DNA from: a virus
Lineage: Duplodnaviria > Heunggongvirae > Uroviricota > Caudoviricetes
Direction: 5' to 3' (one strand)
Virus record (IMG/VR): IMGVR_UViG_2698536369_000025
Length of the DNA: 14,679 nt
Shown here one piece after another: positions 1,611 to 14,679 of the stretch. The notes under the pieces were generated by a model, which was given only the letters and a program-made list of their open reading frames with translations, was not told the DNA's origin and ran no database searches. Every line of letters starts with the position of its first letter. The first letter of the stretch is position 1. Both the position numbers and the translations under genes were made by a program.

Positions 1611-2825
1611 GTGAAACTCAATGCCCGTCAAATAGACACTGCCAAGCCAAAAGAGAAGGCTTACAAGCTGGCTGATGGTGGTGGTCTGTATCTCTTGGTA
1701 AAACCTAGTGGAGGAAAATATTGGCGCTTCAAGTATCGTGTAGCTGGTAAAGAGAAGCTGTTAGCACTAGGTGTGTATCCTGAAGTTACCTTGGCTGATG
1801 CTCGTGCAAAACGTGAAGAAGCTAAAAGGGGTATCGCTGGGGGTATCGATCCGATGGAAGCGAAACGAGAGGAAAAGATTGCCCGGGAAACGCAGTTAAA
1901 CAACACCTTCAAAGATATTGCCCTTGAGTGGCACAGCAGCAAATTAAAAAAATGGTCTGCTGGTTATGCTTCAGACATCCTCGAAGCCTTCAACAAAGAT
2001 GTGTTCCCTTACATTGGCAAAAAACCAATCGCCGAAATCAAACCACTTGAACTGCTGAATGTGCTGCGGCGCATCGAGGGGCGCGGTGCTACCGAAAAAG
2101 CCAAAAAAGTGAGGCAGCGATGTGGGGAAGTTTTCCGCTATGCAATTGTCACTGGACGTGCTGAGTATAACCCTGCACCGGATCTCACCAGCGCGATGCA
2201 AGGACATGAATCTAATCATTATCCTTTCCTCACAGCCAAAGAATTACCTGATTTTTTCAAGGCATTGTCCAGTTACTCAGGAAGTGCATTGGTTGTTATG
2301 GCGGCTCGTTTACTGATTATCACCGGTTTGCGGACTGGCGAACTGCGCGGTGCATTATGGGATGAAATCGATCTCAACAAGGCTATCTGGGAGATACCTG
2401 CTTCACGGATGAAAATGCGTCGCCCTCATGTAGTGCCTTTGTCTGAGCAGGCTCTTTCGCTTATTGGGCAGATTAAAGAACTAACTGGCAATTATCCGCT
2501 TATGTTTCCCGGCCGTAATGATCCAAGGAAAACAATGAGCGAGGCTAGCATAAACCAAGTATTTAAACGCATCGGCTATAACGGAAAGGTTACTGGTCAT
2601 GGCTTCCGGCACACTATGAGCACCATTTTGCATGAGCAGGGCTATAACACCGCGTGGATAGAGACACAGCTTGCGCACGTCGATAAAAACTCAATTCGTG
2701 GCACATACAACCATGCGCAATATCTGGATGGGCGGCGGGAAATGCTTCAGTGGTACGCTGATTATATGGATTCGCTCGAGCATGGCGGAAATGTGGTGCA
2801 TGGTGAGTTCGGAAAATGCGGGTGA
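1611..2825 (+). CDS. int: Site-specific tyrosine integrase, P4-like family (404 aa)
   Basis: GTG start 1611 preceded by GGAGG 1598-1602. N-terminus AKPKEKAYKLADGGGLYLLVKPSGGKYWRFKYRVAGKEKLLALGVYPEV is the typical P4-integrase N-terminal domain. C-terminal catalytic region carries R (TGLRTGELR), HGFRHT and terminal Y (RGTYNHAQY). Sits directly beside a tRNA gene. Confidence 0.93.
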   Translation: MKLNARQIDTAKPKEKAYKLADGGGLYLLVKPSGGKYWRFKYRVAGKEKLLALGVYPEVTLADARAKREEAKRGIAGGIDPMEAKREEKIARETQLNNTFKDIALEWHSSKLKKWSAGYASDILEAFNKDVFPYIGKKPIAEIKPLELLNVLRRIEGRGATEKAKKVRQRCGEVFRYAIVTGRAEYNPAPDLTSAMQGHESNHYPFLTAKELPDFFKALSSYSGSALVVMAARLLIITGLRTGELRGALWDEIDLNKAIWEIPASRMKMRRPHVVPLSEQALSLIGQIKELTGNYPLMFPGRNDPRKTMSEASINQVFKRIGYNGKVTGHGFRHTMSTILHEQGYNTAWIETQLAHVDKNSIRGTYNHAQYLDGRREMLQWYADYMDSLEHGGNVVHGEFGKCG

Positions 2826-2947
2826 CTGGTTGAGTATACAGTAGTAGACTTTGAGCGACGAAAGAAAAGGCTGTGTCTAGGGTCGCTCCCGAAAATCCGT
2901 ACACCTCGACGGACTGGTACAGCCACTACAGTAGAGGACGCTGAGGT

Positions 2948-3751
2948 GTGCGTATGATTGATATTCATGCCGAATTAAACGAATACAAAAAAGATTTTAT
3001 TTCTTTACGTGAATTTCTTGAGGTCGTGCTTAAGGTCGCTGGTGATGATTATGATGTTTCAGATGTCATAACTTGGATACTCAGGAGAATAAGCGGAGAA
3101 CATATCCGCCTGTACACAGTAAATGAATTTAAGCTGTTGGAATCTTTTTGTAACCCGTATCGGGATGAATTTGATAATGATGTTCTTTATAGAAATCTGA
3201 ATGCGGTTCGGAAACGTGGTTGTTTACCTGGTGAGAGGGATGAAAATGGTTTTCTGGTGTCCGGTTATTGGGAAGATCCCGAATTTGAGAACATTGGATT
3301 TATAAGGGGTGAAATTTTCGCAATTTTTCCCGATGTCCTTGACGCGTTAACGAAGCTGGAAGGCGCTAACTCTTCTGAAAATGACGAGGCACAAGGACGC
3401 GATATTGAAAAGAAAGAGTTGCGTACAGAGGATGATTTATTATCCCAAATCGCAATGCTGGAAAAAGAAAACGCAGAGTTAAGGGCAAGGATAGAGCAGT
3501 TAGAGCAAGAGCGCCCGATACACTTATATAAATACTGGGATAAAGACCCATTAGCTAAGGCTATTGAGATTAGAAACAGAGAGTGGGCCAATTACGATCC
3601 AGAAAATGATTTTGCCACCAGGGGAAATCAAGAAGCGATAACCAGGGAGCTTAAGCAGTGGGGGGCAAGTAATGCACTTGCAACGCTCATAGAGAGGACT
3701 GCCTGCCCTATTAACCGAGACAACAGCCAAAAGAACGCAAAGCCGGATTAA
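2948..3751 (+). CDS. Hypothetical protein, about 265 aa, acidic with a central coiled-coil (LLSQIAMLEKENAELRARIEQLEQER); no recognised domain
   Basis: ORF 2948..3751; the more likely start is ATG 2954, with GAGG 2943-2946 seven nt upstream. Lower GC than flanks (24/60 G+C counted over 3001-3060). Followed by a palindrome plus T-run. Function unknown. Confidence 0.7.
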   Translation: MRMIDIHAELNEYKKDFISLREFLEVVLKVAGDDYDVSDVITWILRRISGEHIRLYTVNEFKLLESFCNPYRDEFDNDVLYRNLNAVRKRGCLPGERDENGFLVSGYWEDPEFENIGFIRGEIFAIFPDVLDALTKLEGANSSENDEAQGRDIEKKELRTEDDLLSQIAMLEKENAELRARIEQLEQERPIHLYKYWDKDPLAKAIEIRNREWANYDPENDFATRGNQEAITRELKQWGASNALATLIERTACPINRDNSQKNAKPD

Positions 3752-3764
3752 CGCACCATACCGC

Positions 3765-3912
3765 ATACCCTGAGGGTGATTTACTGTTACCCTGAGGGTA
3801 TTTTTTTATCTTCCCCGTCAATTTTACCATCACCCTTAGGGTAGATTTCCTCCCGATTACCATCACCCTTAGGGTAGATTTCCTTCCGGTAACCATTAGG
3901 CCTGAGGGTATG
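3765..3912. repeat. Array of near-palindromic ACCCT-N-AGGGT boxes (5 copies) including a roughly 32-bp tandem duplication; first pair plus T7 run may act as terminator of the upstream gene, the rest as operator sites upstream of alpA
   Basis: ACCCTGAGGGT at 3767-3777 and 3789-3799 (followed by T-run 3802-3808); ACCCTTAGGGT at 3832-3842 and 3864-3874 inside the tandem repeat TTACCATCACCCTTAGGGTAGATTTCCT (about 3825-3855 and 3857-3887); half-site CCTGAGGGTA 3901-3910. Confidence 0.6.
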
Positions 3913-3978
3913 AAAATATTCGTTATTTCTGTGCCATGATTACCTCGTCAAATTGAGTAGACGTTATGAGGTAAATAT

Positions 3979-4176
3979 ATGTCAAATACGCTTATTCGTT
4001 TAACAGAAGTTCAGCGTAGAACTGGATATAGCAAGGCATGGATTTATCGCCTTATGGGGCAAGGTAAATTTCCTGCATCAGTTAAAATTGGCTCGCGAGC
4101 TATTGCTTTCGTTGAGAGTGAAATTGACGAGTGGATTAATCAGCGTATTGCGGAATCACGCGGAACAGCTACCTGA
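3979..4176 (+). CDS. alpA: AlpA-family (prophage CP4-57-type) helix-turn-helix transcriptional regulator / excisionase-like protein, 65 aa
   Basis: ATG 3979 with GAGG 3968-3971. Translation MSNTLIRLTEVQRRTGYSKAWIYRLMGQGKFPASVKIGSRAIAFVESEIDEWI is the canonical AlpA pattern (RL.EV...TG.S....Y.....G.FP..VK.G.R...W...E...W). Typical partner of P4-type integrases. Confidence 0.85.
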   Translation: MSNTLIRLTEVQRRTGYSKAWIYRLMGQGKFPASVKIGSRAIAFVESEIDEWINQRIAESRGTAT

Positions 4177-4253
4177 TTAAATGGCTACGGGGCTATTGCC
4201 CCCAGCTATCCACCAGCAAATAAAAGTAACTTAATTCGATAGCAGGAGTTTTT

Positions 4254-5054
4254 ATGAAATTTCCAAAAACGCCCGTACAGGGGCGGGGCTTCGTTCGGCC
4301 TGAAAACCAGAATCTGCAAAATTTCGGCGAAATTATCCCGATTATTTCCGGCGTTATTGGCGGGAGTGAAACCACTATTGTTAGCGCCAGAGCGTTACAT
4401 AAGGCGTTAGGTGTAGGGCGCGTTTTCCGTTCGTGGATCAAGGGGCGCATTGAAGAATACGGGTTCACGGAAGGCGTGGATTATGAGGTTGTTGAATATT
4501 TGAGCCGACCCGATCCGGTGAGCGCAAAATCTCGCCAGCAAACCGCTCTTGAGTACATCATCACAGTGAACATGGCGAAAGAACTGGCGATGGTCGAACG
4601 TACCGAACAGGGCCGCGCCGTTCGCCAGTACTTTATCAAATGCGAGGAGGAGCTACACAAGGTTGCGCCTGTTCGTTCCGCAGCGTTACGCCGGGAACTG
4701 AAAGCCCGTATCACCGTTGCCAGCTACTTTAAGCCGATGTGTGCCGCGCTGGAGGCGTACCGGGCTGAACTGGGTAAAAACACGTTCCAGCACCACTACA
4801 CCACGGAAGCCAATATGCTGGCGCGTATCGTGCTGGGTGGCATGACTGCAAAACAGTGGGCGCAGGCGAACGGCATCACAGGCGAACCACGCGACCACAT
4901 GAGCACGTTGCAGCTTGAGCACCTTTCTTACCTTGAGCAGAGCAATATCACGCTGATTGAGTTAGGCCAGGACTACCACCAGCGGAAAGCTGAATTAATT
5001 CGCCTTTCGCAGCGTTGGTTAGCCCGTCGCATGGAGGAAAACAGCCATGTGTAA
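4254..5054 (+). CDS. Phage antirepressor-like regulatory protein (AntA/Bro-N-like N-terminal domain), 266 aa
   Basis: ATG 4254 with AGGAG 4244-4248; TAA 5052-5054. N-terminal segment TIVSARALHKALGVGRVFRSWIKGRIEEYGFTEGVDYEVV resembles the AntA/Bro-N antirepressor fold (recalled pattern, not searched). Assignment to the antirepressor family is moderate; the CDS call is stronger. Confidence 0.7.
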   Translation: MKFPKTPVQGRGFVRPENQNLQNFGEIIPIISGVIGGSETTIVSARALHKALGVGRVFRSWIKGRIEEYGFTEGVDYEVVEYLSRPDPVSAKSRQQTALEYIITVNMAKELAMVERTEQGRAVRQYFIKCEEELHKVAPVRSAALRRELKARITVASYFKPMCAALEAYRAELGKNTFQHHYTTEANMLARIVLGGMTAKQWAQANGITGEPRDHMSTLQLEHLSYLEQSNITLIELGQDYHQRKAELIRLSQRWLARRMEENSHV

Positions 5055-5324
5055 CGCTCTGACCGTTACAAAAAGAGAAAGCGCCCCGTTGCCGGAGCGC
5101 CTTTGTGAACGAATAGCCTACTGCGCCATATTGCTTACTGTCTACGAGGCAGATTATAGCGTTGTGGTCGCACAGAGTGAAGGCGCTGATCACCGTTACT
5201 ACAGCACGCCAGAAATGCAGAATATTTTGCTGCAAAATGTCGTTGGTCACGCTGTCCGGAAAGCAAAAAATTTTGCTGGTGGCGCGACTGATGCGATTTT
5301 TTCTGGTCGCCCGGTGCTGATCAA

Positions 5325-5627
5325 CTACTCCTGTTCTTTGGCCTTGCGGCGCTGGAGTTCTTCACGCGCGACGGTGACGAGTTGCCCGATCTCCTCGGCA
5401 GCTTTGACACCGATTTTTTCCACCTGCGCCAGTGCATCGAGCGAAGAAACCAGGGGATTTTCTCCTCTTCCTTCTGCCTGGCGGCGAGCGATCTCACCGC
5501 ACATGGCGGTTACTATGAATCCGGCGTTGCTTTCGCCGTCCAGTTTTACGGATTCCATGCCCTCCATAACATCGTGGGGAACCCTGATCGTTGTCATTTG
5601 CGATTTTGCATTTTTGTATACAGACAT
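5325..5627 (-). CDS. Small putative DNA-binding protein (ribbon-helix-helix-like N-terminus TTIRVPHDVMEGM), 100 aa, convergent with the upstream gene and divergent from the small-ORF operon
   Basis: Minus-strand ATG at 5627-5625, stop (CTA on plus) at 5325-5327; GGTGA-like SD upstream on the minus strand. Sits next to an operator-like repeat array. It fully overlaps a longer plus-strand ORF (5047..6201) judged spurious in this part. Confidence 0.6.
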   Translation of the reverse strand: MSVYKNAKSQMTTIRVPHDVMEGMESVKLDGESNAGFIVTAMCGEIARRQAEGRGENPLVSSLDALAQVEKIGVKAAEEIGQLVTVAREELQRRKAKEQE

Positions 5628-5835
5628 AGTTAATCACCAATTTGTTATGTGTATATCACTATACACAAAAGTGAGATATAAAAACACTTGCAATGTATAT
5701 CACCACAATATAATGTGTATCTCACATGGAGGTCGCTATGTATCTCACAATGAGCGATTCATAAAAACGACGAAACCCGGCAGTGCGCGAACACTAACCG
5801 GGCTTCTAACCAAACCGTTAAATGAGGTAACGATT
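5628..5835. promoter_or_regulatory. Divergent promoter/operator region with five copies of TGTAT(A/C)TCAC in both orientations, including a perfect 8-4-8 palindrome
   Basis: Palindrome TGTGTATA-tcac-TATACACA 5648-5667; GTGAGATATA 5671-5680 (inverted copy); TGTATATCAC 5694-5703; TGTATCTCAC 5717-5726 and 5739-5748. Lies between the minus-strand RHH-like gene and the plus-strand operon start at 5836. Confidence 0.55.
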
Positions 5836-6201
5836 ATGGCTGGAACACAGCATACCCAAACTCACCCTAAATTTATATACACCTTCCTGGCGGTGCACCG
5901 TGATTGCATGGCTGACGGTAAAAACACTGTACACGTAGCCGCTGATACGCTGGTGGATGCCTGCAAGATGCTCAATGATATGGGCTATATCTCGGCAACA
6001 TGGAAAGGGCGCGAAGAAAACACGCTGTTTATTCAGAAATGCGAAAACAATTTTATATGGCGTTTTATCGCCCTGAGCACAGCACAACCGCGTGTAATTC
6101 ACATCGAGGCCACCAGCGAACAGGAAGCACGCCAGCAATCTCCTGATGGCTGCGTGATGGTATTCGCTGCCCGCATTCGCCAGGAGGTGGAACATGTGTA
6201 A
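5836..6201 (+). CDS. Hypothetical protein, 121 aa, first gene of a coupled small-ORF operon
   Basis: ATG 5836 with GAGG 5824-5827 eight nt upstream; TAA 6199-6201. Same frame as the long ORF 5047..6201, but only this part has an RBS and does not overlap the minus-strand gene. Confidence 0.7.
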   Translation: MAGTQHTQTHPKFIYTFLAVHRDCMADGKNTVHVAADTLVDACKMLNDMGYISATWKGREENTLFIQKCENNFIWRFIALSTAQPRVIHIEATSEQEARQQSPDGCVMVFAARIRQEVEHV

Positions 6202-6418
6202 TGCAACATGGCCTGATGCAGCGGTAGACGCTATCAAAACGCTGATGGATTCACTTGTTGAGATTTCTGCTATCGCTGGTGTGGCGCATAAACACGCAGC
6301 CAGAGAATCAGAATGCATCTCCCATTATTTAGCATTTGTGCAGCTAAAAGCCGATCAGGCACTGGATAAGGCCGGAAAAATTATCATGGCTGATGTGCAG
6401 GAGGTGCACCATGCATAA
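6194..6418 (+). CDS. Hypothetical small protein, 74 aa
   Basis: ATG 6194 overlaps the stop of the previous gene; AGGAGGTGG 6182-6190 upstream. Translational coupling pattern. Confidence 0.6.
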   Translation: MCNATWPDAAVDAIKTLMDSLVEISAIAGVAHKHAARESECISHYLAFVQLKADQALDKAGKIIMADVQEVHHA

Positions 6419-6776
6419 CCTGTCAATTTCTGACCTTAACAGCATTCAGTTTGACGAGAAATTTACCGGGCAGTTGCTGGTCAATGTGGAGAACGGGCGC
6501 ATAGTGCGTAATTACCACCTGCCGGATGGTGCAATTGCCGGAAGCGTTGAAGCATTGCTGGAACTGGCGGAACGTGCGCGACTGATTAAGCCGTCAACGA
6601 GCCATCACGATGATGATCTGCATTTTACCGGGCGTATGGTGAGTCACTACGAAAACGGCGTTGAAGTATCCCGCGAACGGCTGCGTGATGATTGCTGTTT
6701 CGGCACACTGCCGGAATTTATCGAGTTGCTGAACAGTTGCGGTTATCAGGTCATTCAGGGGGGTAAACATGCGTGA
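6411..6776 (+). CDS. Hypothetical protein, 121 aa
   Basis: ATG 6411 with AGGAGG 6399-6404 six nt upstream; overlaps the previous stop (6416-6418). The six-frame ORF begins at 6393 but lacks an RBS there. Confidence 0.65.
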   Translation: MHNLSISDLNSIQFDEKFTGQLLVNVENGRIVRNYHLPDGAIAGSVEALLELAERARLIKPSTSHHDDDLHFTGRMVSHYENGVEVSRERLRDDCCFGTLPEFIELLNSCGYQVIQGGKHA

Positions 6777-7002
6777 TGATCGTTTTAATTCCCTGAAACG
6801 GGAATTTGATGGCGCACCGGAAGATGCAGCGGGCGCATTGTTGAGCGTTGCTGACATGATGAAAGCTGCATATTTTCTTATCAATACCAGTGGCTACAAG
6901 TCAGAGGGTGAAATGATTCTTAGTATTGCGTCGGACTATGCGGAATATGTGGCAGAGACGCGTTACAGAAGAAAATTCACGGAGGATGTAAGCCATGCAT
7001 AA
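6769..7002 (+). CDS. Hypothetical small protein, 77 aa
   Basis: ATG 6769 overlapping the previous stop (TGA 6774-6776); G-rich SD 6758-6763. Confidence 0.6.
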   Translation: MRDDRFNSLKREFDGAPEDAAGALLSVADMMKAAYFLINTSGYKSEGEMILSIASDYAEYVAETRYRRKFTEDVSHA

Positions 7003-7195
7003 TCATGAAGCGCATGTACCCGTAGTGCTTAATGTGCCAGATGATTTCACCGGACGCGTACTGGTTTACCTGGATAAAGGGAAAGTGAAATCACAATGCC
7101 GACTGAAAAGTAATGAGATTGTTGGTTCTCCTGAATTTTTTTCTGAACTTTGTATTCGTGCGGAAATAAAACCGGAACTGCTGACAGGAAAATAA
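6995..7195 (+). CDS. Hypothetical small protein, 66 aa
   Basis: ATG 6995 with GGAGGA 6981-6986 eight nt upstream; overlaps the previous stop (7000-7002). Confidence 0.55.
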   Translation: MHNHEAHVPVVLNVPDDFTGRVLVYLDKGKVKSQCRLKSNEIVGSPEFFSELCIRAEIKPELLTGK

Positions 7196-7199
7196 AACC

Positions 7200-7514
7200 A
7201 TGAAAAAGAAAAATTCTGGCTTTACTGCCAGCGGCCTCTCTCGGCCTGAAATCCGCCCCGGCGATATTTTCCGGGATAAATACGGCAGCACGATAACGGT
7301 AAAAACCGTCGATGATTTTCGCGTGACCTATATCCGCGAAGGTTATACGCATCCCTGCGTGTCGTCACATATGCGCTTTGAAAGGGAATTCATCCTGGTA
7401 AGTAAAGCGCCACTAGCAGAATTAAGCGACATCGACAAAATCATGAGCGTCACGGGCGCGGAACGCATCAGGACAGTACGTGAAATTATTCGTGAGCGGG
7501 GAGGTAAGAAGTGA
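7200..7514 (+). CDS. Hypothetical protein, 104 aa
   Basis: ATG 7200 four nt after the previous stop; its stop TGA 7512-7514 overlaps the GTG start of the replication gene. Confidence 0.6.
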   Translation: MKKKNSGFTASGLSRPEIRPGDIFRDKYGSTITVKTVDDFRVTYIREGYTHPCVSSHMRFEREFILVSKAPLAELSDIDKIMSVTGAERIRTVREIIRERGGKK

Positions 7515-9643
7515 AAAACGCACCGAATTTAAAATATCAGCCGAAGGATAAATTCACCGAGGTAATCATTTTTGCCGGGACGGATGCTTACGCCCATGCT
7601 CAACACTGGATTGAAAGCGAAGGACGAAAACACGGCGATAACGTGCCACCTGTTTATCTGGGGCCAAAGCAACTGGCAGACCTGGCGAATATCCGCATTA
7701 TTGACGCGAAACGCCGCTTTGCACGTGTCTATCTCGCGGGGGAGATAGAACCAATCCAGATCAATGCTATCGCTGAAAAGCTGGCGCTGGCTGGCGTACA
7801 GGAGGCGAAATTATACAAAGGTATCACCGACCGGGAGCCGGAGAACTGGCACGACTACCTGCAACGGATCCGCGAACAGGCCGAACGCGGGGAAACCATG
7901 ACGGAGGAAGTCAGGAGAGTGGGGGGATTGCCCGGAAGAACAGATCCCATGAAACCGCATATCACCGAAAAAGATGGTGCGCTCTGGTATGTCGAGCCAA
8001 TACCCAATACCAGAGCAGAGGAGCTGAATCATAAGGAAACCTGGTTGAGTGACAGGATGCGCACAGCGGGTATTGGTAATGACGGTCGGGAAGCGTATCT
8101 GATAATTGAAATGATCCCGGAAGGAACACAGAAAATTATTTACGAAGCGATGCCGCGCAATGAAATCGGTATGCCAGCAGGATGGGCGAGGTTACGTGGA
8201 CGGGGTGTTGCAATCACCACCAGCGCCCATTTACTGAATAAACTGGCGGAATACCTGCAACGTCAGGGAGATCGTACTGTGTGGGAGGTCACATCAACAG
8301 CCGGATGGCATTGTGGAGCCTATGTTATGCCAGATGGTGAGGTGATTGGTGTACCGGATCGTCCAGTGGCATTCTGTGGCGGATCTGCAGCCATCAAAGG
8401 CTATATCGTCAGGGGGACGGTACAGGAATGGAGGAATAATGTCGCCTCCCTGATGAGAGGTAATCACTCAATGATGCTTGGGGTACTGGTCGGACTGGCA
8501 GCACCCCTTAATTCTCTTGTGGGCGGAAGTTGTTTTGGTATCCACCTTTTCGCGCAGTCGTCAGCAGGGAAAACCACGACGGTGGAAGCTGCCACCAGTC
8601 TTTATGGCGATCCTGAAATGCTCAAACTTTCGTGGGATGCCACCCGGCACGGACTGACGGTGGAAGCTGCCGCACGTAATGATGGCTTTATCCCCATTGA
8701 TGAAATTGGTCAGGGAGGAAGGATTAATGACATCGCGCAATCCGCCTACAGCCTGTTTAACGGTGTGGGGAGAATTCAGGGACGAAAAGATGGCGGCAAT
8801 CGTGCAGTAATGCGCTGGAAAATAGCGGCACTAAGCACAGGGGAAGAAGATTTTGAGACCTTCCTGTTAAAAGGGGGGATCACCCCAAAAGCCGGGCAAC
8901 TGGTGCGGCTGCTAAGCGTTCCCTTTACCGATACAACGGTTTTTAACGGGTATGACGATGGTGATCAACATGCCAGAGCAATAAAGCGACTTTCATCAAA
9001 TTATTGTGGAGCTGCGGGGCGTGAGTGGGTGCGCTGGTTATCCGCTCATAAGGAACTGGCTATTAACACCACTTCCGATAAAGAAAATACCTGGCTGGGA
9101 AATCTGCCTGAAAATGCATCGTCACAGGTCAGACGTGTGGCTTCACGCTTTGCCATGCTGGATGCGGCCGGAGAACTTGCCACCGCAATTACTGGCTGGA
9201 CAGCCGAAGAATGCCGGGCAGCAACACAACGGGCTTTTGATGACTGGTTACAGGATTTCGGGCTGGAAAACCGGGAAAAATACCAGGTCATCAGCCGCGC
9301 CCGTGATTTTATTCAGCGCCATGCCCTGAGCCGTTTTCAGCCTTATACCTACGGGAAAAGCAATGGAAATATGGATAACCACTATGCATCCCGTATAAAC
9401 AACCTTGCAGGGTATCTTGTCAGTGGTAAGCGTGAGGATGGAAAACCCGAATATCACATTATCCCGTCAGTGTTTGATGGCGAAATTTTATGCGGCATAT
9501 CCAGGAACTTTGGGTGTCAGGCGCTGGAGGAAGCCGGAATGCTGGTTTGTGCAGAACCCGGTCGCTGGACATCGAAAACGGTGAAGATTAACGGAACACA
9601 GCAGCGATTTATCGTGCTGATTGACCAGGCTGAAGACGAATAA
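7511..9643 (+). CDS. Putative replication initiation protein of the element: P-loop NTPase, primase/helicase-like (DUF927-type), 710 aa
   Basis: GTG 7511 with GGGGAGG 7494-7500. Walker A HLFAQSSAGKTT and Walker B-like GFIPIDEIGQ in the central region; conserved TAGWH motif; comparable in size and position to P4 alpha-type proteins. An iteron array lies immediately downstream. Family assignment is from recalled motifs. Confidence 0.8.
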   Translation: MKNAPNLKYQPKDKFTEVIIFAGTDAYAHAQHWIESEGRKHGDNVPPVYLGPKQLADLANIRIIDAKRRFARVYLAGEIEPIQINAIAEKLALAGVQEAKLYKGITDREPENWHDYLQRIREQAERGETMTEEVRRVGGLPGRTDPMKPHITEKDGALWYVEPIPNTRAEELNHKETWLSDRMRTAGIGNDGREAYLIIEMIPEGTQKIIYEAMPRNEIGMPAGWARLRGRGVAITTSAHLLNKLAEYLQRQGDRTVWEVTSTAGWHCGAYVMPDGEVIGVPDRPVAFCGGSAAIKGYIVRGTVQEWRNNVASLMRGNHSMMLGVLVGLAAPLNSLVGGSCFGIHLFAQSSAGKTTTVEAATSLYGDPEMLKLSWDATRHGLTVEAAARNDGFIPIDEIGQGGRINDIAQSAYSLFNGVGRIQGRKDGGNRAVMRWKIAALSTGEEDFETFLLKGGITPKAGQLVRLLSVPFTDTTVFNGYDDGDQHARAIKRLSSNYCGAAGREWVRWLSAHKELAINTTSDKENTWLGNLPENASSQVRRVASRFAMLDAAGELATAITGWTAEECRAATQRAFDDWLQDFGLENREKYQVISRARDFIQRHALSRFQPYTYGKSNGNMDNHYASRINNLAGYLVSGKREDGKPEYHIIPSVFDGEILCGISRNFGCQALEEAGMLVCAEPGRWTSKTVKINGTQQRFIVLIDQAEDE

Positions 9644-9674
9644 AACCGCCTACGCTCGCAGAGGGTCAAAAATC

Positions 9675-9949
9675 GCGGGATATGCGGGATATCGGGATAT
9701 GAAAAATATATTATATAGATATCAATTACTTATGTGTCGTTATCGTATCCCGCCATATCCCGCCGTATCCCGGTATTTTGGTTTACGAATGGTTTAAAAA
9801 CAAACGAAATCACTGTATCCCGGAACGTATCCCGCAATATGTTATTGATGCATAAGCAAAAAAAAACTTACCGGGATATGGCGGGATACGAAAAATCGCA
9901 TAACATAATGAAAAATAAGTTGTTTTTTGTTTGTATCCCGATATCCCGG
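9675..9949. repeat. Iteron array / putative origin of replication: about 12 copies of CGGGATA(T/C) in direct and inverted orientation flanking an AT-rich stretch
   Basis: GCGGGATAT at 9675-9683 and 9684-9692, CGGGATAT 9693-9700; AT-rich 9701-9744; inverted copies GTATCCCGCC 9745-9754, ATATCCCGCC 9755-9764, GTATCCCGG 9765-9773, 9815-9823, GTATCCCGC 9827-9835; CCGGGATAT 9871-9879, GGCGGGATA 9880-9888; GTATCCCG 9933-9940, ATATCCCGG 9941-9949. Confidence 0.6.
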
Positions 9950-10103
9950 TAAAAAATGGTTTTTTACGCCTTATAGAGTACAGAAAAGTGATTGCTCAAA
10001 TTTTGTATTACAGGTGGCTACCGTCAGCCATCCGACCTGGAAAAGGCATAAAAGCAGATATGTCATTTTGACAATCAGACTGTTTTGATGATTACACGCC
10101 GAT

Positions 10104-10661
10104 ATGACGGCAACAATGATGGGGAAGAGCATGCCAAAGCTGACCATTAACAGAAAGCCAAAAGGCATTTACGGCACGCCGCAGAAAACGACGCAGGCGG
10201 CACAGGAGCAGGATAAAACCACATCGGCACATAAAGTGATGCCCGGTAACCAGAAAGCGCAGCAGAAGCCCACAGGGGCGACACCGTGGCGGCATATGAC
10301 CAAACGGCAGCGCAAAAACCGCAGGCGCGTTAACCGCCTCACTGAGTTGTGGCCTGAATTATTCAGCCGGGAAGCACCGAAGCCGCTTAAGGTGGGGATA
10401 TTCGACGACCTGATGCAGGATCTCGCCGTCAGGGGGCTGGCATTCGGGCCAGGGGCATTACGTGCGACGCTGGCATCTTATGCGCAGTGTCCGCGCTATT
10501 ACCGCGCCTTAATGGCTGGTGGGGTACGCTACGACCTGAAAGGCCAGCCGTGCGGCGAGGTGACACCACAGGAACAACAGGACGCAGAAACGCGGCTGGT
10601 GGCGCTGAATGAGAAGCGCAAACGTCAGCGCCGGGCAGCAAAGGAGAAAACAGGTGCATGA
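10104..10661 (+). CDS. ProQ/FinO-family RNA-binding protein (185 aa as drawn; true start may be an internal ATG near 10131)
   Basis: Segment PLKVGIFDDLMQDL...LRATLASYAQCPRYYRALMAGGVRYDLKGQPCGEV parallels the ProQ N-terminal FinO-like domain (PLKIGIF.DL......LR.AL..Y......Y.......R.DL.G.PCGE); basic N- and C-terminal tails. Confidence 0.8.
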   Translation: MTATMMGKSMPKLTINRKPKGIYGTPQKTTQAAQEQDKTTSAHKVMPGNQKAQQKPTGATPWRHMTKRQRKNRRRVNRLTELWPELFSREAPKPLKVGIFDDLMQDLAVRGLAFGPGALRATLASYAQCPRYYRALMAGGVRYDLKGQPCGEVTPQEQQDAETRLVALNEKRKRQRRAAKEKTGA

Positions 10662-10945
10662 TTCACGACAGCAAAGCGGAAGCACTGGAAGCGCGTGGTC
10701 TGTACCGGAGAGCGGCGGAACGGTGGGCTGAGGTCATTATGCTGGCGAACGGTGACAAGGCACGGGAACAGGCGGCAAAGCGCCGTGCGGAATGTATCCG
10801 CAAGGCAGCACGCCCACCAGCAAAGCAGGATAATTTCGGGGAGATGCGCGAAACCATCAGCCGGGCACATGCCGGAATGGGATTACATCAGCCCAATGGT
10901 AAGGCATTCAGGAAATATCCTGGATCGAAAAATTGCAGTCAGTGA
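10658..10945 (+). CDS. PerC-family transcriptional regulator-like protein, 95 aa
   Basis: ATG 10658 overlaps the stop of the previous gene (ATGA). N-terminal AEALEARGLYRRAAERWAEVIM matches the PerC/Pch motif (LE.KGLWRRAA..W..VM), recalled from memory. Confidence 0.65.
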   Translation: MIHDSKAEALEARGLYRRAAERWAEVIMLANGDKAREQAAKRRAECIRKAARPPAKQDNFGEMRETISRAHAGMGLHQPNGKAFRKYPGSKNCSQ

Positions 10946-11055
10946 CGGAGGCCGGGATTTTTCCCGGCCTTATTGCATTTCATTAATTGCAATATTTATT
11001 GCTATCATTTCATTTTGTGCAATTGTTGTGGTTGTTATTATTCGGGAGAAAAATC

Positions 11056-11223
11056 ATGAAAGGTCACGGAGTAAAGCCAGTTTTACTTTCCCGGAGGCAG
11101 ATTGAAGCCCTGCAACGTATCCAGGACGAAGAGCGTCAGAAATCTGTGCTTGGTGTGGCGCCGTCGATTCATGTTATTGCCCGGCAACTGATGGATAAGG
11201 CACTTAAAGAGGTGAGACTGTGA
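11056..11223 (+). CDS. Hypothetical small protein, 55 aa (MKGHGVKPVLLSRRQIEALQRIQDEE...)
   Basis: ATG 11056 with GGGAG 11044-11048; stop overlaps the next start. The longer six-frame ORF from 10987 has a hydrophobic, RBS-less leader, so the shorter form is preferred. Confidence 0.55.
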   Translation: MKGHGVKPVLLSRRQIEALQRIQDEERQKSVLGVAPSIHVIARQLMDKALKEVRL

Positions 11224-11492
11224 AATTAAATATCAGAGTGGATAAACGCCAGCTATGGCAGAAAAAAGAGAACAGCGAGGCATTCAGGGCGTTGCTGGTG
11301 GAAAATCTTCAGCACCGGTTCAGTGGAGAGTTGCCTGATGCGCTGGGGAAGAAACTGGAATCTCTGACAGTGGAAATTGGCGATTATGGTTTTGTTGATG
11401 TTGAAAGCACGACAGCCAACACAGAAATCGTAAAACAGGTCGTCAACGATGTAATGAAAACCACGCTTAGTCAGCCATCCTGGCGTAACTGA
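11220..11492 (+). CDS. Hypothetical protein, 90 aa
   Basis: GTG 11220 overlapping the previous stop (GTGA); followed by a GC-rich hairpin at 11499-11519. Confidence 0.55.
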   Translation: MKLNIRVDKRQLWQKKENSEAFRALLVENLQHRFSGELPDALGKKLESLTVEIGDYGFVDVESTTANTEIVKQVVNDVMKTTLSQPSWRN

Positions 11493-11498
11493 ATCAAC

Positions 11499-11520
11499 AA
11501 GGGGCAGTTATTGCCCCTTT
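11499..11520 (+). terminator. Putative intrinsic terminator hairpin
   Basis: AAGGGGCA (11499-11506), loop GTTAT, TGCCCCTT (11512-11519), then T. The U-tract is short, so efficiency is uncertain. Confidence 0.4.
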
Positions 11521-11590
11521 CCTCCATATCCACAACGCATTCCTTTTCCGCATGAAATTATTTTTATCGTATATGCATGAGGTGAGCCAC

Positions 11591-12118
11591 ATGTTGATGA
11601 GTAAAGCTGAATACGCCAAACACAAAGGCGTAAGCCGCCAGACAGTTTACGACTGGATCGAGAAAGGCGAAGTGGTTATGTCCGGTAAAAAAATCGATGT
11701 GGAAGCGACAGAGCAGCGGAACAGCCCACCAGCACAGGGAAAAGACGCAGTTTCTGAAATGTGGCCAGAAAGAACGCTGGAAATGACGTGGGGCGAGTTC
11801 TGGAAAGCAGTTAAGGCCAGAGACGGTAAAATCCCTGCACCAGTAACGGACGATGACATACGGCAGCGTGTGCTGAATGCAGCCGGGGAATTAGGCTGGG
11901 AAGTGCAATTTCTTGATGGTGGTGCTATCTGCCTTGAGGATTGCGACGGGCAGCATTACTTTGAACAATACAATTTGCGGGGTAATGCCTGGCTGGCAAT
12001 TCGTATGTTGCGTTGTGAACTATGCTATGTTGCCAGCGATTGTCCCGATGAACAGGACACATGGAGTGAGGCAGGACTAAACGCCCTGGCTGAATGGGAA
12101 AAATCAGGCCATCAATGA
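11591..12118 (+). CDS. Putative HTH DNA-binding protein with Cys-rich C-terminal region, about 175 aa
   Basis: Preferred start ATG 11591 with GAGGTGAG 11579-11586 (the six-frame ORF starts at 11552 without an RBS). N-terminus SKAEYAKHKGVSRQTVYDWIEKGEV is a helix-turn-helix of the excisionase/MerR-like type. C-terminus has CLEDCDGQH...CELCYVASDC. TGA 12116-12118. Confidence 0.7.
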   Translation: MLMSKAEYAKHKGVSRQTVYDWIEKGEVVMSGKKIDVEATEQRNSPPAQGKDAVSEMWPERTLEMTWGEFWKAVKARDGKIPAPVTDDDIRQRVLNAAGELGWEVQFLDGGAICLEDCDGQHYFEQYNLRGNAWLAIRMLRCELCYVASDCPDEQDTWSEAGLNALAEWEKSGHQ

Positions 12119-12122
12119 CCTC

Positions 12123-12326
12123 AAAAAGTGTCAAGTTGAGCAGCTTTCCAGGTTGACACTTTACACTCTGAACGCGAAAAAGTGTCAACCTCGCTGTAAA
12201 CCCCGTCGTTACTGGCTTTGCGCCAGATTTACCACGTCAAAAAACCGAAAAATCGCGAAAAGTGTCAAGTTGCCATGCTTAGAAATGCTAAGGTTTGATA
12301 AGGTTTTTCGCGAAAAAGTGTCAACC
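12123..12326. repeat. Array of five AAAGTGTCAA boxes (two flavours: ...TGTCAAGTTG and ...TGTCAACC), one inverted; putative operator/iteron sites
   Basis: AAAAAGTGTCAAGTTG 12123-12138; inverted GGTTGACACTTT 12151-12162; GCGAAAAAGTGTCAACC 12174-12190; CGCGAAAAGTGTCAAGTTG 12254-12272; CGCGAAAAAGTGTCAACC 12309-12326. Lies between the HTH gene and a small ORF, upstream of the AT-rich cargo. Confidence 0.6.
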
Positions 12327-12356
12327 AGCCCCCTAAGATTTCCTAAGGTGTAAACC

Positions 12357-12536
12357 ATGACCATCACCGAAGCCGATATGCTGGAGATGATCCGCAGCAT
12401 TGCCGAAATCAAACAATCAGCAAGCAAAATTAACAGGTGTTCAGCGCCTGTTTCCGTTGTGCTGCAACAGGAACGCCACCAGCAGGATGATGTGAGGCCG
12501 TATCAGTGGAAGAAACTGGACAGGCTGCGACGGTGA
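12357..12536 (+). CDS. Hypothetical small protein, 59 aa (MTITEADMLEMIRSIAEIKQSASKINR...); below the size cutoff of the supplied ORF track
   Basis: ATG 12357 with AAGGTG six nt upstream; TGA 12534-12536; host-like GC; last gene before the compositional drop. Confidence 0.45.
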   Translation: MTITEADMLEMIRSIAEIKQSASKINRCSAPVSVVLQQERHQQDDVRPYQWKKLDRLRR

Positions 12537-12929
12537 GCGGAGCGTTACGGTAAGCCAACAGCCAAGCCAAACATTAAGTCTACAGGTAAGGTTGTTTTTT
12601 TGCAGGTGGCATTAATTTGTATGTTGGTTTGAGGAGCATTTTTACTGAGACTGTCTGTTCTGGTTAGTTTTTTCGTATGATATACACCTCATCAAAATTG
12701 TCCGACAGTGTGGAGCGGCGTGGCGGGGAGAGTATTGTGTGCTAGAGATTATAGTTACACTTTAATCTACGACACGATCGTAATTTTTCACTCTTCTTTT
12801 CAGATAAGCTACTACTGAGTTCACAAAAATAACATTATTTTATATCCATGCGTTATCTTTATCTGATATTAATGTGCTGTTCGGTCTTTTTTTGACTGCA
12901 AACGGCATGAATCATATTAAGGAAACCAA

Positions 12930-13173: not shown

Positions 13174-14679
13174 TTGGATAAAGAAAGAATAGAAGCCAAA
13201 GCACCGAAGCAAAAGGAAAGTTATAAGAAGTATTTAAATAATGATTTTATTAGAATTAAGAAAGTATGGAGTAAAAATGGAACAAGAATAGAGGATAAAA
13301 ATTATACTTATGATTATAGTAAAGGAGATAGCGGCGAGTATGATGAAGTTGGATATGCAACAATTGGTTTGCATCAGGTCTTCCAATCTTGTTTGCCAAA
13401 ACCTGTATTTATAAAGGCTATGCCAACAGAGGAAGAAGCTAAGAAGATTCTTAATGAAATCCTAAAGATGATGGCTGAAAATACACTTAAAACATCTGAT
13501 CTTGATGAATTAAAAGCAGCTCAGAATAAAATAAAAGAATTACAAGACAAAATGTATGATCCAGAATTAATTGAAACCTATCAGAATTCAGTTAACGGAT
13601 ACTTTAACAAGATATTCGGTGATACTGCTATATGCTTCAAAGATCAAAAAGATAGGGTTGTTTGGACGGAGAATAAGCTTGGCAGAGATTTTGAAATTGA
13701 GTTTATGAAAAAAAATAGCCAAGGGGAGTTTGATGGCAATATCCCTTCAAGTTATAGCAGTGTAGGTCATGGAACTATTAGGACTGCAATATTTACATTA
13801 TTATTGATGAGAGATGTAGCAGAGCGTTTTGAAAGAAGGCTTGGACGTAAAGATTACATGGTTCTGTTTGAGGAGCCTGAGCTATTTCTCTATCCTAGAA
13901 TGGTGAAGGAACTTCGTGAATTGATTTATCAGGTGAGCACTGAAGACCTTCCATATCAAGTACTTTGTGCCTCACATTCATCTTCCATGATAGATCTTTC
14001 AAAGCCTAAATCTTCGATAATACGATTAGTTAATAATTCTACTGGAACTAAATCATATCAAATTAATGATCAATTTTTGAAGGATGCAAAAGGCATTGCT
14101 ACAAATGCTGAACTTAAACAAGAAATGTATGAAGTTTTGAGGTTCAACCCTTATATTTGTGAATCATTCTACGCTGATGAGGTACTTCTGATTGAGGGGC
14201 CAACAGAAGAAATAATATGTAGAGCTTTTTTACAAGAAACCCCATCAGATAAATCTATATTCGTATTGAACTGTGGTACGGTTAATAACATTCCTTTTTA
14301 TCAAAAAATCTTCTCAAGGTTTAATATAAAATATCATGTGATCTGTGATACAGATAAAGCAGAAATAGTTACCGTAGATCAATCTGGCAATGCAGATTTT
14401 GATTCTGGAATACAGAAAACAATTTCAGAACAGTATAGGAATGATTGTACTGCAATGAATGGTAATATAGGACTACTTCGAACTCATAACATTACATTTG
14501 AACCTGCTCATCAAGATGTTAGTATTCCTGACTTTTTGAGATTTGTTGATTGCGGTGATAGAAGCAAACCATTTAATGCAAACTTGTACTGGAAGGATAT
14601 TTTAAGGCCAAATATATCACATCAAGATATAAATAAAGTGCCTATAATTAAGTATTTGAATGAAATAATAGCACATTAA
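13174..14679 (+). CDS. OLD-family (overcoming lysogenisation defect) ATPase-Toprim nuclease-like protein, C-terminal about 500 aa; candidate anti-phage defence gene; frameshifted relative to its N-terminal Walker A fragment
   Basis: Open frame runs back to 13066 without a stop; the track start at 13174 is TTG. Motifs: GHGTIRTA (Q-loop/signature-like), VLFEEPELFLYP (Walker B), CASHSS (H-loop), then Toprim-like LLIEGPTEE and a DTD acidic motif (VICDTDK). AT-rich (15/60 and 21/60 G+C in two counted 60-nt samples, against 32/60 in the replication gene). TAA is the last codon of the window. Confidence 0.8.
   Translation: MDKERIEAKAPKQKESYKKYLNNDFIRIKKVWSKNGTRIEDKNYTYDYSKGDSGEYDEVGYATIGLHQVFQSCLPKPVFIKAMPTEEEAKKILNEILKMMAENTLKTSDLDELKAAQNKIKELQDKMYDPELIETYQNSVNGYFNKIFGDTAICFKDQKDRVVWTENKLGRDFEIEFMKKNSQGEFDGNIPSSYSSVGHGTIRTAIFTLLLMRDVAERFERRLGRKDYMVLFEEPELFLYPRMVKELRELIYQVSTEDLPYQVLCASHSSSMIDLSKPKSSIIRLVNNSTGTKSYQINDQFLKDAKGIATNAELKQEMYEVLRFNPYICESFYADEVLLIEGPTEEIICRAFLQETPSDKSIFVLNCGTVNNIPFYQKIFSRFNIKYHVICDTDKAEIVTVDQSGNADFDSGIQKTISEQYRNDCTAMNGNIGLLRTHNITFEPAHQDVSIPDFLRFVDCGDRSKPFNANLYWKDILRPNISHQDINKVPIIKYLNEIIAH

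Follow-up and report, generated by a model that had tools for sequence, protein, structure and literature searches.

In the Staphylococcus aureus pathogenicity islands (SaPIs), 6–12 short iterons lie directly 3′ of rep in opposite orientations around an AT-rich region, and the SaPI Rep proteins are self-loading initiators that contact these iterons with a C-terminal winged helix and need no ATP to melt the AT-rich centre (PMC9371898). An origin layout like that of the SaPIs has been reported for the phage-inducible chromosomal islands (PICIs) of Escherichia coli (Fillol-Salom 2018, PMC6092414), and a pri-rep-ori fragment of EcCICFT073 supported plasmid maintenance only when both rep and ori were intact (PMC6092414). 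Here, we analyzed a 14,679-nt stretch of viral DNA (IMG/VR record IMGVR_UViG_2698536369_000025), hereafter the window. It represents a PICI-type phage satellite that sits at tRNA-Thr in E. coli, and in it an array of short CGGGATA repeats follows a gene encoding a DUF927 protein (Rep). Judging from its sequence and that of its relatives, the region 9658–9978, which contains the array, is very probably the vegetative replication origin of this satellite. The array is built like the satellite origins described to date, with an iteron sequence not reported before.

Within 273 bp (9676–9948), the array contains 12 exact copies of CGGGATA, where about 0.03 would be expected, and in the whole window the heptamer occurs 16 times against 1.41 expected, a count reached in 0 of 200 dinucleotide-preserving shuffles. 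The base following the heptamer is C or T in all 12 array copies, giving the consensus CGGGATAY, of which one perfect copy was found in the window outside the array (6666–6673); a scan of the array allowing one mismatch revealed no further copies. The first-pass annotation had described about twelve repeats of the form CGGGATA(T/C) directly 3′ of the gene at 7511–9643, and both statements were confirmed, with the first iteron beginning 33 nt past the rep stop codon (9641–9643). It had also grouped them into three clusters of alternating orientation; instead, we counted five blocks composed of three forward, three reverse, two reverse, two forward, and two reverse iterons. Neighbouring iterons lie 8–9 bp apart in the outer arms, with a spacing of 10 bp in the inner ones. 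The inner arm of the second module (module B) is an inverted repeat of the right arm of the first (module A). Specifically, the segments 9740–9762 and 9872–9894 are 96% complementary (inverted repeat I2), and the segments 9868–9879 and 9941–9952 are 100% complementary (inverted repeat I9). From the arm spacings, the 96%-complementary inner arms, and the anatomy of the spacers, the array is a two-module pseudo-palindrome with two extra iterons at its centre (Table 1). Isolated copies of CGGGATA outside the array were located at 4334–4340, 6666–6673, 7272–7278 (inside the DUF4222 gene, some 240 nt before rep), and 9460–9466 (near the rep 3′ end), i.e., four copies against about 1.4 expected window-wide.

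As in PICI and SaPI origins, opposite sets of iterons flank AT-rich DNA, three plus three at 46 bp in module A and two plus two at 45 bp in module B. The spacer between the module A arms (9700–9745, 78% A+T) corresponds to the AT-rich segment placed at 9701–9744 in the first pass, and the least stable 30-mers of the window start at 9696–9705, inside this spacer (99.99th percentile). The second stretch claimed there (9840–9930) is A/T-rich as stated, but it consists of two stretches split by the iteron pair at 9872–9889, and its relevant part is the 45-bp spacer between the last two blocks (9889–9933, 76% A+T). A match to the consensus of the integration host factor (IHF) lies at a fixed position of the module A spacer (nt 21–22) in 30 of 33 loci, including the Xenorhabdus loci and a locus with a different iteron, GGCGGATA, described below. 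Such a match occurs in only 1.6% of shuffled spacers, and across the loci it is the four N positions that vary, with the bases specified by the consensus retained. In the module B spacer, most related loci retain the motif TTTCAWNNNGTTA at a constant distance from the outer arm, and its distance from this 8-bp-spaced arm is equivalent to that of the IHF site in module A. The IHF consensus was additionally found in the origins of RM13514 and FDAARGOS_1058 and was not found in those of CFT073, 042, or the other DUF927 alleles; our literature search returned no paper linking IHF with PICI origins. Regarding the borders of the array, the leader GCAGAGGGTCAAAAA is nearly invariant in E. coli, Serratia, and Salmonella, with one variable position ahead of the A-tract, and an A5–7 tract is situated at the equivalent place in the Xenorhabdus loci shown and in locus L002. 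Downstream, the element TTTTACGCCTTATAGAG is kept in the same three genera, a TTATATAG-like element occupies the equivalent place in Xenorhabdus, and none is present in the two loci that have module A only. It may belong to the origin or act as a non-canonical promoter element of the operon that follows.

Table 1. Coordinates of the features of rep and the probable origin, and of int and AlpA, in the window.
Feature	Position	Strand	Description
int, P4-type tyrosine integrase	1611–2825	+	beside tRNA-Thr
AlpA	3979–4176	+	between int and rep
rep, 710-aa initiator-helicase (DUF927; predicted SaPI Rep/Cch type)	7511–9643	+	Pfam DUF927, E = 1e-40
predicted C-terminal DNA-binding domain of Rep (aa 609–703)	9335–9619	+	two helices, then beta-hairpin wing
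leader GCAGAGGGTCAAAAA	9658–9672	+	A-tract end just before the first iteron
module A left arm	9676–9700	+	three CGGGATAT iterons at 9676/9685/9693, spacing 9 and 8 bp
module A spacer	9701–9744	.	78% A+T, probable DNA-unwinding element
IHF consensus site TATCAATTACTTA (WATCARNNNNTTR)	9720–9732	+	exact consensus match, inside module A spacer
module A right arm	9745–9772	-	three CGGGATAY iterons at 9746/9756/9766, 10-bp spacing
central iterons between the modules	9815–9834	-	two, at 9816/9828, 12-bp spacing
module B inner arm	9872–9889	+	two CGGGATAY iterons at 9872/9882, 10-bp spacing
module B spacer	9890–9932	.	76% A+T; 98.9th percentile of instability
inverted IHF-like motif TTTCATTATGTTA	9901–9913	-	inside module B spacer
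module B outer arm	9933–9948	-	two CGGGATAY iterons at 9934/9942, 8-bp spacing
conserved element TTTTACGCCTTATAGAG	9962–9978	+	~15–30 nt past the last iteron

The Rep protein encoded upstream of the array comprises an N-terminal alpha/beta module (aa 1–127), a disordered linker, a beta-rich collar, and an AAA+ ATPase, followed by a helical domain and a C-terminal winged-helix-like domain. When its sequence was compared with the PDB using phmmer, it matched SaPIbov1 Rep (8tch, E = 7e-7) and the SCCmec protein Cch (5dgk, E = 1e-6). The AlphaFold2 model, obtained with 45 homologues, had a mean predicted local distance difference test (pLDDT) score of 81, and Foldseek aligned it over about 580–600 columns with Cch (5dgk, E = 2e-21) and SaPIbov1 Rep (8tch, E = 9e-20), with MCM and other AAA+ helicases far behind; sequence identity to SaPI Rep/Cch is only about 14–17%. 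According to this model, Rep would belong to the self-loading AAA+ helicases of the SaPI Rep/Cch type and use a C-terminal domain to bind DNA. The end of the model (aa 652–703) is composed of two helices and a beta-hairpin in a winged-helix arrangement, and the C-terminal domain is a candidate iteron reader. The P4 alpha family model TIGR01613 (NCBIfam) did not match the window Rep, while CFT073 Rep scored above its curated cut-off and RM13514 Rep just below. Relatives of about 920 aa in Xenorhabdus, Klebsiella, Proteus, and others bear an N-terminal Zn-ribbon and a Toprim primase domain, a place taken in the window Rep by the 127-aa alpha/beta module (pLDDT 85), for which the PDB contained no significant match (best E = 0.07). 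The module could be a primase that has escaped recognition or a constant adaptor. Codons 1–128 of rep (7511–7894) are about 95% nucleotide-identical to those of islands with an otherwise unrelated, P4-alpha-like Rep, and the recombination breakpoint is situated in the disordered linker (aa 128–143).

The comparison with other genomes yielded 31 loci of the GGGATA type from seven genera (Escherichia, Salmonella, Serratia, Klebsiella, Xenorhabdus, Leclercia, and Buttiauxella). In all 31, the GGGATA core is situated directly 3′ of a Rep homologue (61–99% identity), so the site lies immediately 3′ of rep in the window and in every related locus, as it does in PICI and SaPI origins. Rep is the sole protein of the window present in all of them. 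The module A spacer measures 46–47 bp in 26 of the 29 GGGATA-type loci measured and also in locus L002. Among E. coli relatives about 90% identical to the window, the substitutions are located in the spacers, leaving the iterons intact. In E. coli ZF8-1, a 20-bp insertion (L003:3141-3160) adds exactly two 10-bp iteron units to the right arm of module A, which indicates that iteron copy number varies naturally; a C-to-T change was also observed in the second iteron of this strain. In Salmonella and Serratia, where Rep is 76–81% identical, CGGGATA iterons occur in unchanged five-block order. The alignment of these two genera with E. coli has 73 invariant columns out of 84 within iterons and 61 out of 202 elsewhere (Fisher p = 2e-19), which places the iterons under purifying selection.

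More distant loci, namely 23 from Xenorhabdus, Leclercia, and Buttiauxella (Rep 62–70% identical) together with a Klebsiella aerogenes element, share the core GGGATA as YGGGATAA. Their block order is that of the window, and the first spacer measures 46–47 bp in nearly all of them. Nearly all Xenorhabdus loci have a single central iteron, compared with two in the window. Leclercia and Buttiauxella have module A only, i.e., three forward iterons, a spacer (47 bp in Buttiauxella; 64 bp by exact-core count in Leclercia), and three reverse iterons, after which comes ssb. Module A thus represents the minimal unit that is conserved. In Xenorhabdus khoisanae, about ten (CGTAA)n microsatellite units (L006:4790-4850) are inserted between module A and the central iteron and lengthen this interval, with the modules undisturbed. 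The K. aerogenes element pYD-K10_2 (L041) is a 10.5-kb circle bearing int, alpA, and a Rep of the window type, with iterons laid out as in the window. Its annotation lists no further replication gene, and it fits an autonomous replicon. Both this circle and K. pneumoniae unnamed2 (L042, 16 kb) were deposited as small non-mobilizable plasmids and are circular phage satellites with int, alpA, and a DUF927 Rep, one with a capsid-protease fusion and the other with a full capsid/portal/terminase set. They were presumably sequenced in the excised, replicating state.

The iteron sequence changes together with Rep. In E. coli strain 4, whose Rep is 73% identical, the region 3′ of rep could not be aligned by BLAST and carries GGCGGATA iterons at 33, 42, 50 / 103, 123 / 188 / 232, 242 / 294, 302 nt past the rep stop codon, while the window iterons are located at 33, 42, 50 / 103, 113, 123 / 173, 185 / 229, 239 / 291, 299 nt. 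Other DUF927 alleles bear TGGGACAAG, GCGGGTTA, or TGAACCAAC, so that five alleles have five different iterons. Likewise, the iterons of the published PICIs are GGTAGAYA in CFT073, GGTGAACA in RM13514, and AAGTGAG in 042; EcCICFT073, EcCIRM13514, and EcCI042 were taken from the coordinates in Table S1 of PMC6092414, and the iterons were derived here from these coordinates and not from the figure of that paper. Another example concerns E. coli FDAARGOS_1058, in which the island flanks are 93–98% identical to the window on both sides, including AntA, the first 128 rep codons, ProQ, PerC, and the 188-aa gene. In place of 7895–10114 (the Rep body and the array), this island has a P4-alpha-like Rep, and its iterons read GGTAGACA. 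Because this swap leaves the downstream genes in place, the iterons travel with the Rep body and not with a downstream regulator. In the last 150 residues of Rep, six positions conserved in at least 93% of the 31 GGGATA-type Reps differ in the GGCGGATA-type Rep (A626G, E673K, E682G, R685N, S688T, and T696M), and five of these (aa 673–696) fall in the predicted C-terminal helix and wing. These six positions are candidate specificity residues. Altogether, the comparison of alleles shows that the iteron sequence is specific to the Rep allele. The origin of EcCIRM13514 (L032:8055-8545) has GGTGAACA/TGTTCACC iterons and an IHF consensus in its first spacer. This iteron, which we take to be the type I iteron of satellite phage P4, fits the P4-alpha-like Rep of that island.

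The proposal of the first-pass annotation, a probable origin bound by the upstream initiator, is supported by the Rep type, the linkage of Rep and iterons in 31 of 31 loci, the purifying selection, and the co-variation of iterons with Rep; the check it had suggested, looking in other genomes for this repeat beside homologues of the initiator, gave a positive result. Additionally, the array has all the computable features of PICI/SaPI origins and lacks those of P4 ori/crr and of iteron plasmids, such as the direct 17–22-bp iterons with DnaA boxes of an iteron plasmid oriV. From the homology with SaPI Reps, we infer the following mechanism, including Rep binding, melting, the role of IHF, and the function of module B. 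After induction, Rep would recognise the CGGGATAY iterons via its C-terminal winged-helix-like domain and, as a self-loading hexameric AAA+ helicase, would assemble on the converging arms around the AT-rich spacer 9700–9745. Host IHF bound at 9720–9732 would bend this spacer and bring the two arms together, the spacer would melt (9700–9720 region), and Rep would load on the single-stranded DNA as the replicative helicase. The inverted module copy (9872–9948) and the two central iterons could serve as an auxiliary loading or control site.

Several observations weigh against this reading or parts of it. The case for this allele is built on homology, position, and co-variation, the IHF site at 9720–9732 is a consensus match only, and the putative specificity residues come from a single alternative lineage. 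Pfam found no primase domain in the window Rep, in contrast to the Zn-ribbon and Toprim domains of its 920-aa relatives. AlpA also differs in FDAARGOS_1058, so the cassette swap leaves AlpA as a possible binder of the iterons. Finally, module B adjoins a conserved TATA-like element and is absent in Leclercia and Buttiauxella, and it may be regulatory rather than part of the origin.

One rival explanation, which we consider improbable, is that the array, or at least module B (9815–9948) with the TATAGAG element, is an operator/promoter bound by Rep or another island regulator to control the proQ-perC operon. Module B and the TATA-like element 15–30 nt downstream are conserved together and are both missing in the two module-A-only loci, and the array fills the sole sizeable intergenic gap ahead of the downstream genes; however, a consensus scan of 9400–10300 found no sigma-70-like promoter, and the downstream genes vary among iteron-bearing loci (ssb, hypothetical genes, capsid genes). 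In FDAARGOS_1058, moreover, the genes for ProQ, PerC, and the 188-aa helix-turn-helix (HTH) protein are 93–96% nucleotide-identical where the iterons wholly differ; since they are unchanged when the iterons are swapped, their products are not the iteron binders. Module A, for its part, shows every element of the published origin layout, and its DNA is the least stable of the window. Given its link to the TATAGAG-like element, module B may nevertheless have a regulatory or dual role.

The swap bears equally on the suggestion that the array is a cosB- or pac-like packaging site bound by a small-terminase-like protein, like R3-I1-R2 in lambda cosB. An IHF consensus between inverted repeats would suit such a site, as would the weak small-terminase PHROG match of the island's 188-aa HTH protein (E = 4e-8), but the 188-aa gene is 93% nucleotide-identical in the island where the repeats are exchanged along with the Rep body, and in the flanks examined this protein is present in 1 of the 31 iteron loci, compared with 31 of 31 for Rep. 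The homologous position of EcCICFT073 has been shown to be an origin (PMC6092414), and the spacer is the least stable DNA of the window; packaging is thus a very unlikely function. Still less credible is a decayed or chance repeat cluster, such as the remnant of an inactive island. The 7-mer is short, four isolated copies occur elsewhere in the window, and the window's island may not be inducible; against this stand the 0 of 200 shuffles that reached the observed count, iterons nearly invariant across three genera while the spacers diverged, a layout kept across seven genera, and an intact and conserved rep. Other candidates were rejected. At permissive thresholds, Rfam returned only sub-threshold plant microRNA and small-RNA noise. 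The mechanical open reading frames (ORFs) 9621–9797 and 9734–9952 appear in no RefSeq annotation, and the 20-bp insertion of ZF8-1 breaks both frames. Integrase arm sites were discarded since the ECamp52 island, whose rep-ori is 100% identical, has a different integrase and attachment (att) site. A partition site was dismissed as no ParA or ParB genes were present among the proteins scanned, and a DnaA-dependent origin as the array contains neither a DnaA box nor GATC, its sole DnaA-box-like site having one mismatch and lying in an A/T run.

Returning to the origin reading, its design may be new for satellites, although we regard this only as a tentative possibility. It would then consist of a two-module pseudo-palindrome in which the 8-bp-spaced and 10-bp-spaced arms of each module enclose an IHF or IHF-like site, separated from the former by about 20 bp of A/T and from the latter by about 13 bp. 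Bending by host IHF would be an obligatory part of helicase self-loading, and module B would be either an enhancer like crr or a switch that links replication with transcription further downstream. An exchangeable specificity cassette, composed of helicase, C-terminal domain, and origin, would be joined to a constant 127-aa N-terminal adaptor that replaces the primase domain.

The window starts with a proA-like gene, followed by tRNA-Thr(CGU). The island fits the PICI elements, which are defined by int, alpA, pri-rep, a single direction of transcription, a specific att site, and no phage lysis or tail genes, and core genes like those of the window are also annotated in RefSeq genomes. All identified island genes are on the + strand. 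The integrase is followed by genes encoding AlpA, an AntA-family protein, an Icd-like protein along with small ORFs, a DUF4222 protein, and the 710-aa DUF927 protein, and then by the array, while genes encoding ProQ/FinO, PerC, the 188-aa HTH protein, and an OLD-family nuclease are located after it. The nuclease ORF (13174–14679) combines an AAA_15/AAA_21 ATPase with an OLD-like TOPRIM domain, runs off the window end, and is probably anti-phage defence cargo of the island. No copy of the tRNA-Thr 3′ end was found within the window, the right end of the island lying beyond it, and homologues of psu, sid, and delta were not found among the window proteins scanned. E. coli ECamp52 (L001) carries an island whose core is 98.8% identical over 4021–12608, with a 100% identical rep-ori, at a tRNA-Gly gene; its integrase differs (73% identical over the aligned part; L001 versus window 1611–4020), and this alignment shows exchange of the integration module. 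In ECamp52, a sieB-like superinfection-exclusion gene occupies the place of the OLD nuclease region. A 267-aa ORF between int and alpA (2948–3751) had no Pfam or PHROG match, and its ECamp52 counterpart is annotated in RefSeq as 'protein kinase'.

The rep-ori stretch was identified in 26 of 5,426 complete E. coli genomes, including 55989 and O104:H4 outbreak strains, and the array region is unannotated in all RefSeq genomes that carry it; phage and plasmid collections contained no close copy, only 60–80% relatives. Marking the array as a satellite origin closes an annotation gap in RefSeq genomes including those of E. coli 55989 and the O104:H4 strains. In the literature searched, which did not cover the published PICI iteron figure and the ED1a allele, neither CGGGATA nor TATCCCG is described as an iteron of this kind. 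The locus also offers a natural specificity experiment, with 73%-identical Reps predicted to read CGGGATA versus GCGGATA in otherwise superimposable origins, and the six distinguishing residues make origin recognition by SaPI/Cch-type self-loading helicases testable by mutagenesis. Conservation of the IHF site suggests that satellite replication in enterobacteria requires a host factor, and we found no report of such a requirement. The general picture of PICI replication is unchanged by the window origin, and its modest interest lies in the CG/GC specificity switch, the IHF site with the two-module pseudo-palindrome, and the exchange of Rep body and origin behind a constant N-terminal module.

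When comparing to known systems, the likeness to satellite pri-rep origins noticed in the first pass proved correct, as the layout is that of the published PICI and SaPI origins (PMC6092414, PMC9371898). The window shares with EcCICFT073 and its relatives (PMC6092414) the gene order int, alpA, icd-like, DUF4222, rep, ori, (ssb), proQ, perC, which apart from ssb is common to CFT073, RM13514, and 042, as well as an origin directly 3′ of rep and alternating blocks of short iterons around an AT-rich spacer of about 45–50 bp. Parts of the window island are 93–98% nucleotide-identical to an island of the CFT073 iteron type. In contrast, the window iteron CGGGATAY differs from GGTAGAYA, GGTGAACA, and AAGTGAG, and its Rep is DUF927/Cch-like, whereas those of CFT073 and RM13514 reach or approach TIGR01613 and that of 042 is RepA-like. 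The window island is situated at a tRNA gene and has a P4-type integrase, while the published sites are non-tRNA, and the window lineage has a positionally conserved IHF consensus that CFT073 and 042 lack. The SaPI Rep-ori systems (SaPIbov1, SaPI1, SaPI5; 8TCH, 7OLA; PMC9371898) resemble ours in the predicted initiator fold, including the C-terminal DNA-binding region, in the 6–12 iterons immediately downstream of rep, in the AT-rich centre with at least two opposed iterons per side, and in allele-specific specificity. Unlike our satellite, the SaPIs reside in Gram-positive hosts, have iterons of 5–6 nt rather than 7–8 nt, and carry the primase separately or as a recognisable fused domain in place of a 127-aa N-terminal module without known fold. 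The window origin additionally has a second inverted module and an IHF consensus.

The layout of P4 ori/crr, also invoked in the first pass, applies as an analogy only, since the window Rep has no TIGR01613 match and no copies of the P4 type I iteron TGTTCACC were found in the window. Both P4 and the window satellite have one multifunctional initiator-helicase whose C-terminal domain reads, or in our case is predicted to read, iterons in two cis clusters. In P4, however, ori and crr are kilobases apart, compared with about 100 bp between the window modules directly after rep. Iteron plasmid origins (pSC101, R6K gamma, P1, RK2) likewise place initiator-binding iterons beside an AT-rich unwinding element, and several of them have an IHF site inside the origin. 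Their iterons are direct, 17–22 bp long, and located on one side of the unwinding element, and these origins carry DnaA boxes and have a small winged-helix dimer Rep that recruits host DnaB, whereas the window has iterons of 7–8 bp in inverted blocks and an initiator that is itself the predicted helicase.

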